Notes: generated by a model not told the origin, from the letters alone. Positions 21,209 through 40,518 are shown, counted from the stretch's first letter. The stretch: 64,000 nucleotides of DNA from an uncultured bacterium (GCA_963766885.1 CAVYBO010000002.1:365521-429520); one strand, 5' to 3'. Made by a program: numbers and translations.

Positions 21209-23266
21209 TTATTTTAGAAGTTTCGAAAACTCTTCTTCGGATAAAACTTTTACACCAAGCGCGTTGGCATTATCAAGCTTTGAGCCGGGGTTTTCGCCCA
21301 CTACTACAAAACTTGTTTTGTTTGAGACCGATCCAATAACATCTCCGCCAAGAGCTTTGATTTTTTTCTTTGCCTCATCGCGACTCATACTTGATAGTGT
21401 ACCAGTCAATACAAATGTTTTTCCCGAAAGAGGTTTTTTGGCTGCAGAATTTCCAACAACCTTTTGTATTTCAATTTGTTTGAGTAAGCCTTTAACTAGA
21501 TTTTGATTTGCTTTTTCTTTGCGCCACAAAACTATTGCATCCGACACATTCGGGCCCACTCCGTCGATATTTTCCAAGTCTTCTTTTGTTGCTCCAAAAA
21601 AATTTTCTACTGTTTTAAAATTATTTGCCAAGTCTTCTGCGGTTTCTTCGCCAACTTGCGGAATTGAAAGCGCGGTGATAAATCTCTGCAAAGAAACTTT
21701 TCTTCGGTTGTTTACAGATTCAATCAAATTATCCGCAGACAATTCTGCAAATCTTGGGAGCGAAAGCAGATCTGCTTTTTTAATCTTGAAAATATCTACC
21801 GCAGTAGAAATAACAGAATTATCCAAAAGCAGATCAATCACTTTTGGTCCCATTCCTTTAATATCAAACGCATTTTTTGAAGCAAAATAATAAAGCTTTC
21901 TCCTGTCTTTTCCCAGACAGTTTGGATTAGTGCAATATAGCGCAGCGCTTACTTCTCCCCCTTTTGACTTGTCTCCAATAATTATTTTTTTGAGTTCCGT
22001 TCCGCAGACAGGACAATTTTTTGGCATATGAATTATCTTTTCTTTTCCAATCCGAAGTTCCGTCAAAACTTTGACCACATCCGGAATGACGTCTCCAGCC
22101 TTGCGAAGAATTATCGTGTCGCTAATTTTCAGTCCCAATCTTTTAATCTCATCTTCGTTATGAAGAGTCGCGCGAGCAACCGTAGAACCGGCAACAGAAA
22201 CAGGTTTGAGTTTGGCCACAGGAGTAATAACTCCCGTTCTTCCGATTTGAAAAAAAACGTCCTCAACTATTGTAGTCACCTCTTCAGCTGGAAACTTAAA
22301 AGCAATTCCCCATCTTGGCGCTTTGCCCGTATAACCCAAGACATCCTGAAGTTTTTTTTCATTAACCTTTATCACCACTCCGTCAATCCAATAATCCTCT
22401 TTTTTGGCACCTTCCTTCCATTTGCTCCAATATTCAATAATTTCTTCAACATTTTTTACTTTTTGAAAATGTTTGTTCACATTAAATCCAAGCTCTTGAA
22501 GCATTTTCAATTCTTTTTCTTGACTCTGCGGAAAGTTATCTATTTCTGCGATATCATAGACAAAATTTTTTAGCCTCCTTTCGGCGGCGATTTTGGGATC
22601 AAGCTGGCGGATGGAGCCTGCGGCAATGTTTCGAGGATTAGCAAAAAGCGGCTCACCTTTCCTTTTTCTCTCTTTGTTCAATTCTTCAAAAACTTTTTTG
22701 GACATCCATATTTCCCCTTCGACGATCATATCGACAGCTTGAGAAAGCTTTAAAGGTACTGATTCAATGGTCCGGACATTCATTGTCACATCTTCACCAA
22801 TCTTTCCGTCGCCACGAGTTGCCGCTTGAATTAGAAATCCATTCTTATAAGTCATCACGATTTTTAGGCCGTCAATTTTCAGTTCGCAAATATATGTCGG
22901 ATTTTCCTTCACGCCTTCTTTACTCAAAAAATTTTTTATTCTCTTATCAAAAGCAAGCAATTCTTCTTCGTTGAAGCAATCATTAAAAGACCACTGAGGC
23001 ACTCTATGCGCTACTTTTTTGAATTCATCCAGAGGCCTGCCTGCCACTCTCTGTGTTGGAGAATCAGGAGTAATAAGCTCTGGAAATTTAGTTTCAATCT
23101 GGACTAATTCATGCTTCAGGGAATCAAGCGCTTCAGGAGTTACTTCAGAATAATCCAGCACATTATATTCGTAGCGCAACTTATTGATAAGCTCTCTCAG
23201 TTTTTCTGTTCTCTTGATAGTTTCTATTGGAACCATATTAGAAAGAAATCTCAATCGCTCTTTCAA
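21209..23266 (-). CDS. ligA: NAD-dependent DNA ligase
   Basis: It has the adenylation motif CELKIDGL (KxDG), Zn-finger cysteines (CPVCGTEL...C..C), a helix-hairpin-helix region and a C-terminal BRCT domain. Confidence 0.9.
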
Positions 23267-23837
23267 ACCTGTTTATATTGTTTACATCACAAGTATTATA
23301 TCCTCTGGAAGTTATAGTGGTCTTACCTGTGACACTTTTGTCAATTTTAATATCAAAACAGACATTGTTTTCATTAGGAACTTGAACACTGAATGAATAG
23401 ATACCAGTTACCAAGTCATTACCGCCATCAACACCGCCAACATTGCTAAAATCAGTTATGATATTACCGCTAGAATCAATAAGGTGCGAACCTAGGCAAG
23501 TATAATTTGTGGGCGGGTTTTCAGATGCGGTACTGCAACCAGAATTATTAAAATTAAGGGAAGGAGATGGAAAAAGCCCAGAAGGACAATTAGAGTCGAT
23601 TGTTTTGCTATACCTATCCAAATACATTGCGCATTCCGTACCGGTATCAGCATTATAAAAAGCAAACTGCGATTGGCTTCCCGCCGAGGAAAGATTAATC
23701 TCTTTTATAGCCACATCCAAAATAGCGGCGCCTATGGCAAGCACAAGTCCTCCTATCATTGAAGCGTAAAGCAAAGCAAAGGCCCGCTTGTGATTATTTT
23801 TCATATTTTGAATGTAATTAATATATTTGCCAATCAT
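23238..23837 (-). CDS. pilus-associated protein (PilX-like minor pilin), hypothetical
   Basis: It has an N-terminal hydrophobic segment and sits at the end of the minor-pilin operon. Confidence 0.4.
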
Positions 23838-24417
23838 ATAAAACTTCGCTAAGTGTAAATGTCCTTGTGCCGCTGTAAAGCTGTCCTCCAGACCAAGATA
23901 TTGTGGCTGTTACCAGCGCCTCATCATTGCTTCCATTGTATGGAGTTGTAACCGTTATAAGTCTGCTGAATTTTGACTGCGAAACGTCTAGATCGCCTGT
24001 AGACTCATAAGAATATAATCCTGTATCACTATTATAATTTAAATATCCGCAAGGATTACTGCTGCCAGAATTACCGCAAGCGGAGATGGGATCTACACGG
24101 CTACCTATGGATAATTGGTACAAATCAAGCTTACATCCCGGACTTTCTGCATCTGGATCATTGGCGCACATAGAAAACTCTGGCGGCCAGCCGCTAGTAT
24201 TATCGCCAAAATACATATCTCTTTTATTTCTTAAATATTCAATTCCTTCCTGCGCCAAATAATACGCCGTAATCTCATCTCTGGCATAAAAGGCTGCAAA
24301 AAGCGATTTGGCGGCAATCTGCATTGGGCCGACAATTGAAAGTAGGAGTATGGTAATTGCAACCATAACCTCTATCAAAGTAAACGCTTTTTTATTTTTT
24401 TTAAAAAAATTTTTCAT
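23818..24417 (-). CDS. minor pilin / pseudopilin (prepilin-type N-terminal methylation domain)
   Basis: It has the KGFTLIEVMVAITILLL class III signal. Confidence 0.75.
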   Translation of the reverse strand: MKNFFKKNKKAFTLIEVMVAITILLLSIVGPMQIAAKSLFAAFYARDEITAYYLAQEGIEYLRNKRDMYFGDNTSGWPPEFSMCANDPDAESPGCKLDLYQLSIGSRVDPISACGNSGSSNPCGYLNYNSDTGLYSYESTGDLDVSQSKFSRLITVTTPYNGSNDEALVTATISWSGGQLYSGTRTFTLSEVLYDWQIY

Positions 24418-38691: not shown

Positions 38692-39807
38692 TTACATAAA
38701 TTCCTGAAGCTTGCGCAAGGCAATACCGGCAGCAACGGCAAAATCCAAACCGCTTTCTTTGAGAATATCAGCAAGAAACGCCGGCACTTCAATTTTGCCA
38801 AAAGCATCCCCCATAACAACCTGTGTTTGGAACTTGGATTTTGCAAAATCTATAAAACCACTCATAGCAACTCCGCCGCCAGTTAGAAATACCTTTGATA
38901 CCGCTTTGTGGGTTTTTTTCTCATAAAAAAGCATAAAGCTTCCCGCTTCTGAAAAAACGTAATCTAGAGTGAGAGACACTATGTCATAAATGCTTTTTTC
39001 TTCTTCTTTGTTCAGAGTCCCCATGTTTCTTTTGATTTTTTCCGCCTTCTCCATGGAAACTTGGTAGCCTTGGGAAATGGCGGAAGTGATATCCTGAGAG
39101 CCTTTGTTTATTATGTGCGACTGCTTGACTATACCTCTTTCAACTATATAAAGTTTTGTTGCTGCGGCGCCCATGTCAAAAATCATAACTGTGTTTATTT
39201 CGTGCTCAATAATAGAACGGATTGTTGCAAACATTTCTATTTCAAAAAAACTTGTCGCAAGTCCCGCGCCTTTGACTACTGAATTATAATTGTTCAAAAC
39301 TTCATTATGGATTGAAACAATCAAAACTTCTGTTTTGTCTGATTTGATCGGCTCTTCGTCGCCCGGAGAAGCAAAGCTTCGAGGCTCCTCTTTTGGAATT
39401 ATCCACCAATCCATTGCAACTTCGCTTATCGGCACAGGAATATATTTTCTGGCTTCAAGCGGCACCATCTTGTTCAGTTCGTTTTGAGAAAGATTCGGCA
39501 TTTCAATTATTGAAACTAAGCTGGCGCGCAAAGGAATAGCGATACCGGCGTTTGCTGTAGTGACATTCGCTTCCTTCATCAAATCTCTTATGATCTCGCT
39601 TACCTTTTCCTGTGGAAGTGTTGCAGCTTGGCCAATTGTCACTCCGGCATAAGGACCTATAGCGAGACTTCCGTAAGTTTTTAGAATCGCTTTGCCTTTT
39701 GATTTGGCAACCTGGACGATTTTTATAGCCGAAGACCCAATGTCAACTCCGATTACGTTCGTGTCTGCGTGGTTGAACTTAAGTATGTTACTTAAAAAAT
39801 TATTCAT
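38692..39807 (-). CDS. pilM: type IV pilus assembly ATPase-fold protein PilM
   Basis: It has the actin-like fold signatures VIGVDIGSSAIKIV and FDMGAAATKL. Confidence 0.8.
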   Translation of the reverse strand: MNNFLSNILKFNHADTNVIGVDIGSSAIKIVQVAKSKGKAILKTYGSLAIGPYAGVTIGQAATLPQEKVSEIIRDLMKEANVTTANAGIAIPLRASLVSIIEMPNLSQNELNKMVPLEARKYIPVPISEVAMDWWIIPKEEPRSFASPGDEEPIKSDKTEVLIVSIHNEVLNNYNSVVKGAGLATSFFEIEMFATIRSIIEHEINTVMIFDMGAAATKLYIVERGIVKQSHIINKGSQDITSAISQGYQVSMEKAEKIKRNMGTLNKEEEKSIYDIVSLTLDYVFSEAGSFMLFYEKKTHKAVSKVFLTGGGVAMSGFIDFAKSKFQTQVVMGDAFGKIEVPAFLADILKESGLDFAVAAGIALRKLQEFM

Positions 39808-39834
39808 AAAATATAGTAATATAGAGATTATATC

Positions 39835-40518
39835 ATGATGGATCGGATCTTCTTTAAAATTCTATCATTTTTTCAGGATTGTTATGAAGAGTATCTTTTT
39901 CAAAAAAGCCCACTGGCAATCAGGCTTGAAAAATTCCAAAGCCAGGATTGGCTTGCTCTTCTTTCTCCCTTAGAAAAAAATAATGTCTTGAGTTTTTTTT
40001 CCTATGAAAACAAAGAAATACACGAGGCCATAAGAGAAATAAAATATTCCAGAAACAAAAAAATTCTTGTTTCTTTGGCTGATTTTTGCGCAGATATGCT
40101 TTTATCTTTTTTGGAAGATGATATAAATTTTGGTTCGGATTCAAAAATTGTTTTTGTTTCGGTGCCGAGCCATAAAAAAAGTTTGCAAGAAAAAGGATTC
40201 AACCAAGCAGAAGATCTGAGTAAAGAAATTTCCAAAAAATTTGCAATTCCATCGCAAATGAATAAAAATATTTTAAAGAAAATTAAGTACACCAAGCACC
40301 AGACAAATCTTTCCAGAAATGAAAGACTAAAAAATCTGCATCAGGCGTTCATCGCAGAAATTCCCGAAGAAATTAAGGTCGAAATCGACAAAACATTTTT
40401 TATCGTCATAGACGATGTCTCCACCACTGGAAGCACAATGCGCGAAAGCCGGCGCGTGCTTCGCCGCGCCGGCGCAAAACATATTCTTTGTTTTTCTATC
40501 GCCCGAAGCGGAGAGTAA
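39835..40518 (+). CDS. comF: ComF-family phosphoribosyltransferase-domain competence protein
   Basis: IVIDDVSTTGSTMRESRRVLRRAGAK is the PRTase motif typical of ComFC. It is adjacent to the pilus locus. Confidence 0.7.
   Translation: MMDRIFFKILSFFQDCYEEYLFQKSPLAIRLEKFQSQDWLALLSPLEKNNVLSFFSYENKEIHEAIREIKYSRNKKILVSLADFCADMLLSFLEDDINFGSDSKIVFVSVPSHKKSLQEKGFNQAEDLSKEISKKFAIPSQMNKNILKKIKYTKHQTNLSRNERLKNLHQAFIAEIPEEIKVEIDKTFFIVIDDVSTTGSTMRESRRVLRRAGAKHILCFSIARSGE

Follow-up and report, generated by a model that had tools for sequence, protein, structure and literature searches.

The pilus operon and its conserved membrane protein

The stretch of DNA analysed here (the window) comprises 64,000 nucleotides from an uncultured bacterium (GCA_963766885.1, CAVYBO010000002.1:365521-429520). 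Open reading frame (ORF) listing and family scans revealed a contiguous type IV pilus operon on the minus strand, between about 39.8 and 23.2 kb (Table 1). The type IV pilus set of monoderm or Candidate Phyla Radiation (CPR) type is present, with PilB, PilT, PilC, PilM, PilO, PilD and several prepilins carrying a G|F-x-x-x-E leader. Two large membrane proteins, MP1 (606 amino acids, aa) and MP2 (589 aa), are encoded among the pilin genes. Their lengths, like the gene order from pilM to the minor pilins with comF alongside, agree with a preliminary description of this DNA. The region is best explained as a single conserved type IV pilus operon of an ultra-small bacterium of the Paceibacteria type (Patescibacteria/CPR), with a dedicated pilin-modification module. 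Within that module, we think it probable that MP2 is a polyprenyl-phosphate-sugar-dependent pilin glycosyltransferase working in the manner of TfpW from Pseudomonas.

In Patescibacteria, type IV pili are regarded as the chief organelle of host contact, motility and DNA uptake. We compared 49 related pilus loci, one genome per species, most of them labelled Paceibacterota, Parcubacteria or Patescibacteria. Their ORFs were labelled by BLAST against the proteins of the window and by the prepilin-leader pattern. Gene order is constant among those with an MP2 orthologue of at least 38% identity: comF, in the same divergent position relative to pilM as here, then pilM-N-O-x-pilB-REC-pilT-pilC-pilin-(MP2 +/- GT2 +/- MT)-pilin(s)-pilD-minor pilins-ligA, where REC is a receiver and MT a methyltransferase. 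MP2 orthologues with usable flanks (identity at least 38%, range 38-51%) were available from 34 loci. In all 34 species-level genomes MP2 is placed between the first pilin and pilD, directly after the first pilin; pilC or pilD lies within 5 kb in 34/34 and a pilin within 5 kb in 32/34. A lack of synteny with pilins elsewhere had been named beforehand as evidence that would overturn the pilin link, and MP2 stays with pilins in every one of these loci. Given that each close relative examined has MP2 within its pilus operon, the protein most likely adds sugars to pilus subunits.

A GT2 glycosyltransferase accompanies MP2 in most of the 34 loci: it is fused in 10, adjacent in 19 and neither in five, two of which are at contig ends. 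About one third of the MP2 homologues are proteins of some 800 aa with an N-terminal GT2 domain, and elsewhere the same GT2 is a separate adjoining gene. Its best matches are the P. furiosus Dol-P-Man synthase 5mlz (E 1e-21), ArnC and GtrB (sll0501). In NCBIfam it matches AglJ (the best), PgfS, ArnC, PpgS and a Dol-P hexose transferase model, all below the equivalog cutoffs. Judged by these matches, the partner is a GT2 of the dolichol-phosphate-mannose synthase (DPMS)/ArnC/GtrB type. Enzymes of this type all make polyprenyl-monophosphate monosaccharides. A small S-adenosylmethionine (SAM)-dependent methyltransferase (Methyltransf_23/11; 164-241 aa) adjoins MP2 in 15 of the 34 related loci, which suggests a methylated sugar.

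Table 1. Features of the pilus locus and its surroundings, in window coordinates.
Feature	Position	Strand	Support or remark
comF-family phosphoribosyltransferase	39835-40518	+	TIGR00201 ComF, E 2e-23, below curated cutoff; divergent from pilM
pilM	38692-39807	-	TIGR01175, E 1e-45, 156 bits vs cutoff 133
pilN-position bitopic protein	37877-38608	-	no Pfam/NCBIfam match; assigned by position
pilO	37329-37880	-	PF04350, E 4e-7, 30.6 bits vs cutoff 22
small conserved bitopic protein	36929-37327	-	no Pfam or NCBIfam match
pilB extension ATPase	35203-36926	-	T2SSE + MshEN; two ORFs, 36030-36926 and 35203-36033
stand-alone response-regulator receiver	34760-35167	-	PF00072, E 3e-22
pilT retraction ATPase	33693-34754	-	T2SSE, E 2e-43, 353 aa
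pilC platform protein	32468-33671	-	T2SSF, E 2e-51; two ORFs, 33363-33671 and 32468-33391
pilin1	31957-32325	-	N_methyl, E 1e-10
terminator-like hairpin, pilin1/MP2 gap	31907-31934	-	12-bp stem, 6 GC pairs, then T-run
MP2, predicted GT-C glycosyltransferase, 589 aa	30121-31890	-	predicted fold; no sequence-family match
pilin2	29615-30028	-	N_methyl, E 1e-8
bidirectional terminator-like hairpin	29560-29599	.	18-bp stem, T-runs both sides; common to convergent MP1 and pilin2
MP1, putative PMT_2 (GT39-like) GT-C glycosyltransferase, 606 aa	27748-29568	+	PF13231
pilin3	27272-27664	-	N_methyl, E 1e-7
pilin4 (GspG-like)	26813-27268	-	N_methyl, E 6e-10; TIGR01710, E 1e-13, below cutoff
direct repeat, 172 nt, 87% DNA identity	27495-27666, 29859-30030		5' ends of pilin3 and pilin2
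pilD prepilin peptidase	25828-26649	-	A24_N_bact, E 3e-28; Peptidase_A24, E 8e-12
four minor-pilin genes	25010-25831, 24426-25052, 23818-24417, 23238-23837	-	N_methyl in first three
gatA	20131-20904, 19482-20279		two ORFs
DedA/VTT-domain membrane protein	40869-41456	-	PF09335, E 1e-15
right-handed beta-helix protein, 562 aa	42251-43939	-	PF13229
519-aa protein	13306-14865	-	Kre9/KNH-like, Big_7 and TIG Ig-like domains
533-aa protein	16047-17648	-	no Pfam match
reverse transcriptase	57754-58764		RVT_1, E 3e-7
IS3-type integrase-core ORF	58840-59394
two short ORFs	59342-59886
Mrr-like endonuclease	60616-61290
DUF4268 protein	61564-62076
N4/N6 DNA methylase	62126-63394
MvaI/BcnI-family endonuclease	63391-63903

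Predicted fold and conserved residues of the membrane proteins

Searched as a single sequence, MP2 has no match in Pfam, NCBIfam or PDB, and a profile of 68 family sequences found no PDB match at E <= 10. Scanned one by one, the 68 members gave no match to PMT_2 or any other GT-C family of Pfam even at E <= 1. By Pfam, MP2 is not PMT_2, not STT3 and not Wzy_C. Its predicted structure is more informative. The AlphaFold2 (AF2) model, a confident one (pLDDT 93.7, pTM 0.91), shows about 13 transmembrane (TM) helices and, at the C-terminus, an extracytoplasmic alpha/beta domain that corresponds to the core unit of AglB, as in the 13-TM fold of oligosaccharyltransferases (OSTs). In Foldseek the top 13 chains are STT3, PglB and DPY19 (E about 1e-7, TMq 0.51-0.59), followed at lower rank by ALG12, AftA and ArnT (1e-4 to 1e-3) and by the protein mannosyltransferases (PMTs, above 0.04). 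Since the top matches all act on peptides, MP2 belongs structurally with the peptide-glycosylating GT-Cs. On the strength of the model, we describe MP2 as a predicted GT-C glycosyltransferase with an OST/DPY19-like fold and no match to described sequence families. The MP2 family amounts to about 2,660 clusters at 50% identity (E <= 1e-3) and has no Pfam model; it can now be assigned to the GT-C superfamily.

Sequence conservation within the family falls where a GT-C active site would be expected. D71-D72, directly after TM1, is invariant in 68/68 sequences, within the motif S/T-x-D71-D72-H-F-F-H-F-R-F-A. E298, R373 and D376 are invariant too and E295 is kept in 65/68, all of them intact in the window copy; they belong to the segments E295-G-x-E298-L-Y, in the long loop before TM10, and S-x-R373-F-x-D376. 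Other conserved positions are K135, R184, W218, T222/F223, C507 and C512. After the last TM helix comes V-V-F-N-x-x-W462-[N/S/G/D]-W464-F465-P-Q-L-Y-Y ... G480-L-E-P-R. As the N-terminus of MP2 is fused in relatives to a cytoplasmic GT2, it should lie inside, with the DD loop and the C-terminal domain outside.

It could be argued that MP2 has retained a GT-C-like fold but serves the pilus machine as a structural component without catalytic activity, and its core-like conservation within the operon would fit such a role. However, its invariant acidic and basic residues occupy canonical GT-C active-site positions, and a lipid-sugar synthase is recurrently fused or adjacent to it. We therefore regard a purely structural role as very improbable.

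MP1 was easier to place. It matches Pfam PMT_2 (PF13231) over residues 65-232 with 37.7 bits against a gathering cutoff of 26.1 (E 3e-9); no second Pfam family, not even PMT itself, and no NCBIfam model matched it. Its AF2 model (pLDDT 95.1, pTM 0.94) also has a GT-C fold and ends in a C-terminal extracytoplasmic domain. From sequence and model, MP1 appears to be a PMT_2-family GT-C glycosyltransferase. Among 67 sequences, D39 is invariant and D35 is kept in at least 90%, both in the loop after TM1, and H144, E145, H148, K186 and E188 are also invariant. The acidic first-loop motifs noted earlier in the two proteins are thus real and conserved. The profile searches that had been proposed for both gave a family for MP1 but none for MP2, and neither protein matched an unrelated transporter family.

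Donor, acceptor and linkage

We hypothesize the following route. A cytoplasmic GT2 of the DPMS/ArnC/GtrB type, fused or adjacent in relatives, would charge polyprenyl phosphate with the sugar of a nucleotide-sugar donor. The lipid-linked sugar would be flipped across the membrane, and MP2 would move it to membrane-anchored pilin subunits at the outer face, before or during their assembly by PilB and PilC. In many relatives, the adjoining SAM-dependent methyltransferase probably modifies the sugar. In this genome, MP1 and the duplicated pilin2 and pilin3 take the place of the GT2 and the methyltransferase at the locus and would form an extra lineage-specific cassette; such an arrangement resembles, by analogy, the allele-specific pilin accessory-gene cassettes of Pseudomonas. 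We infer a polyprenyl-monophosphate monosaccharide as the donor and the pilins as the acceptor; the type of linkage and a role of MP1 on pilins are treated below with the same reserve.

The closest functional parallel is TfpW of P. aeruginosa group IV, a GT-C pilin D-arabinofuranosyltransferase encoded immediately downstream of pilA, with a DDX motif in periplasmic loop 1 and a periplasmic C-terminal domain, which glycosylates Ser/Thr of the pilin (bioRxiv 10.1101/2020.04.19.049825). Its donor is a polyprenyl-phosphate-linked sugar of cytoplasmic origin (bioRxiv 10.1101/2020.04.19.049825). MP2 shares with TfpW the nature of a GT-C membrane enzyme encoded right after the major pilin gene. TfpW (646 aa) is predicted to have 11 TM helices, ends in a TPR domain and was modelled by its authors on ArnT/Emb-like enzymes. 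MP2 differs by these descriptions: its TM helices number about 13, its C-terminal alpha/beta domain is AglB-like, and its partner GT2 is of the DPMS/GtrB type, where TfpW depends on the DprE1/2 arabinose pathway.

Other systems resemble parts of this arrangement. STT3, AglB and PglB are the best structural matches of MP2 and share with it some 13 TM helices, an acidic first loop, a C-terminal extracytoplasmic domain and a Trp-rich motif at the position of WWDYG. However, MP2 has no sequence match to them, lacks the strict WWDYG and has DD instead of D-x-D, and its partner GT2 implies a monophosphate monosaccharide donor whereas theirs is a diphosphate oligosaccharide. Archaeal AglB glycosylates type IV pilins. 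DPY19 is likewise an OST-like 13-TM GT-C, and it moves a single sugar from a polyprenyl monophosphate (Dol-P-Man) to a peptide; it is a eukaryotic C-mannosyltransferase that targets Trp in WxxW, and no sequence similarity between it and MP2 was detected. No WxxW motif was seen on reading the pilin sequences of the window. Among PMT/GT39 enzymes and the bacterial, ArnT-like PMT_2 proteins, MP1 passes the PMT_2 model and its homologues adjoin GT2s resembling Pren-P-sugar synthases, whereas MP2 has no PMT_2 match. The two-step logic is the same in GtrB/GtrC, ArnC/ArnT and PgfS with PgfM1/M2 (Streptococcus mutans), and the MP2-linked GT2 matches the ArnC, GtrB and PgfS models, but those systems modify O-antigen, lipid A or adhesins, not pilins. 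Unlike two-step lipid-carrier systems, this one has no identified GtrA-type flippase. To our knowledge, a direct GT2/GT-C fusion is not a feature of those systems. PglL and TfpO (PilO) do add glycans to pilins, and the TfpO gene follows pilA directly, as the MP2 gene follows the first pilin. However, they belong to the Wzy_C family, with another fold and undecaprenyl-diphosphate (Und-PP)-oligosaccharide donors, while MP1 and MP2 have no Wzy_C match and both have a GT-C fold. We regard MP2 as a variation on the pilin-linked GT-Cs already known, set apart by its OST/DPY19-like fold, the lack of a described sequence family and frequent fusion to a lipid-sugar synthase. In the literature searched we found no pilin glycosyltransferase of Patescibacteria, only O-glycosylation sites predicted in pilins of the related Saccharibacteria. 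The type IV pilus study that predicts them calls the glycosylation processes of Saccharibacteria unexplored (PMC11623550).

The preliminary description had proposed O-linkage and a mannosyltransferase-like chemistry. Neither is established for MP2; its fold is nearest the N-OST/DPY19 subclass and not the PMTs. One may then ask whether MP2 is an N-glycosylating enzyme related to STT3, AglB and PglB, which would transfer a polyprenyl-phosphate sugar to Asn of pilin N-x-S/T sequons as archaeal AglB does. Such an enzyme would be a special case of the pilin glycosyltransferase proposed above, differing in chemistry and ancestry. STT3 and PglB, together with DPY19, do fill the top 13 Foldseek places. 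The predicted architecture agrees as well, with about 13 TM helices, an inner N-terminus and outer C-terminus, acidic residues in the first loop and E-G-x-E in the loop that corresponds to EL5, and AglJ is the best NCBIfam model for the partner GT2. Beyond the last TM helix, the segment V-V-F-N-x-x-W-[NSGD]-W-F-P-Q-L-Y-Y resembles PglB VVTWWDYGYPVRYY (checked against the PDB sequence; the stretch compared is YVV(T/A)WWDYGYP(V/I)RYY) in place and pattern. Nevertheless, the strict WWDYG, a motif that in N-OSTs binds the Ser/Thr at +2 of the sequon, does not occur in the family: at the Asp position, as matched from the pattern, the 68 sequences have N in 32, S in 24, G in seven and D in four, so that N, S or G stands there in 63/68. 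Even by profile there is no STT3 match in Pfam or in PDB sequences. The DD-H-F-F-H-F motif looks nearer to the 'DE-x-HF' loop of PMTs than to the OST D-x-D. DPY19, a user of monophosphate monosaccharide donors, scores equally well, and the class of the partner GT2 points to such donors, which are typical of O- and C-glycosylating GT-Cs.

The sequons themselves give a mixed picture. The first pilins 3' of pilC (n=45) contain 139 N-x-S/T against 112 +/- 9 expected (z = +3.0), with the mirrored S/T-x-N depleted at 87. All four pilins of the window have a sequon at mature residues 76-84, and a G-N-x-T-F sequon occupies one shared alignment position in the first pilins of the window and of its two closest relatives, L001 (7064-7435) and L004 (9370-9753). 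But in 11 non-redundant representatives (<35% identity) the excess is gone (29 vs 26.9 expected, z 0.5), and it may be inherited. Because of this collapse on de-replication, we do not use sequon enrichment as evidence. On balance we judge N-glycosylation of pilins by MP2 to be quite unlikely. In a bolder version, MP2 would stand for an undescribed bacterial branch of the STT3/AglB/DPY19-type peptide glycosyltransferases, core to the Paceibacteria pilus operon, forming with its fused synthase a minimal two-enzyme protein glycosylation pathway and maybe N-glycosylating pilins as archaea do. This we offer as speculation with a small chance of being right. If true, an OST-like enzyme invisible to sequence annotation would put sugars on the organelle by which these ultra-small episymbionts chiefly contact their hosts.

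Several observations weigh against a pilin glycosyltransferase. MP1 occurs in 0/49 of the related pilus loci. A metagenome set added 80 loci with MP1 homologues, mostly from high-GC non-CPR genomes; in only six of the 43 with enough flank does a pilin or other type IV pilus gene lie within 4 kb. MP1 homologues occur in general glycan-synthesis clusters, and the closest ones (45-46% identity) adjoin DPMS-like GT2s, sugar C-methyltransferases and an epimerase. The two counts rule out MP1 as a general pilin-associated family. Among nine distant MP2 homologues (27-35% identity), seven adjoin a GT2 but six lie outside pilus loci and only three in them. Searches by tblastn, by family hidden Markov models (--max) and by Pfam scans that took in another 30 flanking ORFs found neither a GT2 nor a methyltransferase of the partner families within the 64-kb window, so that the donor pathway is hypothetical for this genome. 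The one link between MP2 and a pilin acceptor is synteny, and the composition of the pilins (Ser+Thr content, sequons) yields no robust signature of glycosylation. Finally, if the frameshifts in pilB and pilC described below are real, the pilus cannot be assembled.

Part of this evidence would suit enzymes, MP2 and/or MP1, that glycosylate something other than pilins (a lipid, a wall or teichoic-acid-like polymer, an S-layer or a secreted protein) and owe their place in the locus to co-expression or chance insertion. The MP1 family is widespread in non-CPR bacteria, without pilus neighbours in 37/43 loci and with its closest homologues in sugar-modification clusters; distant MP2 homologues are mostly found away from pilus genes. 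MP1 lies on the opposite strand between 87%-identical repeats of pilin 5' ends, which fits insertion by recombination. An MP2-family member and an MP1 homologue also share one sugar-modification cluster (L055, below). However, the placement of MP2 in 34/34 loci at only 38-51% identity would be difficult to account for if MP2 had no functional connection with pilins, and its nearest structural relatives all use peptide acceptors. We thus hold a non-pilin target to be unlikely, and keep pilin glycosylation by MP2 as the preferred reading. The earlier idea of two GT-C-like enzymes tied to pilins is partly supported, strongly for MP2 and weakly for MP1.

The L055 cluster deserves mention in its own right. 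It contains an MP1 homologue (46% identity) and an MP2-family member (hhalign probability 100%, E 9e-43), encoded at 620-2389 and 7823-9511; a GT2, an epimerase and sugar methyltransferases are encoded there too, and no pilus genes accompany them. Possibly the MP1 and MP2 families work jointly on one glycan. Distant MP2-family members (about 180-260 bits) are also found fused to a GT2, with a membrane part that has no Pfam match. A PMT_2 neighbour of an MP2-like fusion in L136 was considered as an MP1 relative and rejected, as it is not one.

With MP2, its partner GT2 and the likely substrates named, the pilin glycosylation hypothesis is open to direct test. Glycosylation of pilins may be the norm in these pili and under selection, with possible roles in host recognition, phage evasion or filament stability. 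The natural fusion of a lipid-sugar synthase with a GT-C is an attractive minimal system for the study of mechanism.

Pilins, frameshifts and neighbouring genes

The four short pilins of the operon share a G|FTLIE leader. They had been listed as four major-pilin paralogues; the four genes exist but are not equivalent, since pilin2 shares 57% identity with pilin3, and identity to this pair falls to 39% for pilin1 and 28-31% for pilin4. Upstream of pilin1 there is a 142-nt gap and downstream a strong hairpin followed by a T-run, a pattern typical of a highly expressed major pilin gene, so pilin1 is the likely major pilin. It is also the positional orthologue of the first pilin 3' of pilC in relatives. 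The gene just upstream of pilD, pilin4, has its orthologue at that place in relatives and aligns with pilins of L001 and L004 ending in ...YKI-EGP. The direct repeat at the 5' ends of pilin3 and pilin2 brackets MP1, whose cassette could be lost or swapped if the two copies recombined. The pilin C-termini, previously called rich in Ser/Thr, are barely so: the globular parts of the pilins contain 20-25% Ser+Thr vs 17-19% in other secreted pilus proteins. The alternation of pilin and membrane-protein genes had been read correctly in its order, but the strand of MP1 (plus, convergent with pilin2) had been missed.

Both pilB and pilC turned out to be split in this copy, which the preliminary description had missed. 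One frameshift interrupts pilB near 36033 (within 36020-36060), the first ORF covering T2SSE profile positions 4-120 and the second 122-368, and one interrupts pilC near 33380 (within 33360-33400). PilB (573 aa) and PilC (402 aa) of L001 each align to the window in two frames; intact orthologues in relatives have 573-575 aa for PilB and 402-403 aa for PilC. As the ORFs of each pair lie in different frames, these are frameshifts and not in-frame stops, which rules out an alternative genetic code. A single frameshift also affects gatA (20131-20279).

Such damage could mean that the pilus system is decaying in this genome, with real frameshifts in pilB and pilC, loss of the GT2 and the methyltransferase and a non-functional module. 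Such a reading is about the condition of the locus and can be combined with any of its functional interpretations. The single frameshift in each of three genes, the position of the pilB and pilC sites outside homopolymer runs and the lack of a GT2 and a methyltransferase that most relatives have would all agree with decay. Yet gatA, also frameshifted, is a gene we expect to be hard to lose in so reduced a genome, and this points to assembly or consensus errors. The other pilus genes and both GT-C genes are intact with all their invariant residues, and so are the long genes ligA, RNR, recG and ftsH. Moreover, three or more relatives whose flanks are complete (L029, L049, L052) have intact pilus genes without an adjacent GT2. 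Decay is doubtful, though its probability is not negligible. Because gatA is hit as well and other long genes are intact, we lean towards consensus or assembly errors.

The remaining genes of the operon follow the pattern of the relatives. The pilN-position gene has orthologues 24-46% identical at the same place, and PilT is 59-75% identical to its counterparts. The name pilP-like, earlier given to the small bitopic protein, has no support from Pfam or NCBIfam scans; in L001 and L002 a gene of 96-133 aa occupies its position. In nearly every related locus with sufficient flank (L001-L052) a receiver gene is found between pilB and pilT, and the stand-alone receiver seems to be a conserved element in the regulation of this CPR pilus operon. 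Three of the four minor pilins previously listed have an N_methyl domain, but the fourth ORF has no Pfam match; a similar-sized gene lies between the minor pilins and ligA in relatives, matching its position. ligA-gatC-gatA come after the minor pilins at this end of the operon. A competence role, once suggested for the locus, has the adjacency of comF as its sole basis.

Beyond comF, a DedA/VTT-domain membrane protein adjoins the pilus locus. DedA-family proteins have been implicated in the recycling of undecaprenyl phosphate, which any lipid-carrier glycosylation cycle needs. Further on, the Asn/Ser/Thr-rich beta-helix protein has an N-terminal hydrophobic segment and could be a surface adhesin; the 519-aa and 533-aa proteins on the other side of the operon could be surface proteins as well. 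The reverse transcriptase gene, within 57438-59886, follows a 107-aa ORF and is followed by the IS3-type integrase-core ORF and two short ORFs. No direct repeat of at least 40 nt of the template/variable type of diversity-generating retroelements was found in 55500-60000. A defence or restriction cluster (60616-63903) occupies the end of the window, with an Mrr-like endonuclease, a DUF4268 protein, an N4/N6 DNA methylase and an MvaI/BcnI-family endonuclease.

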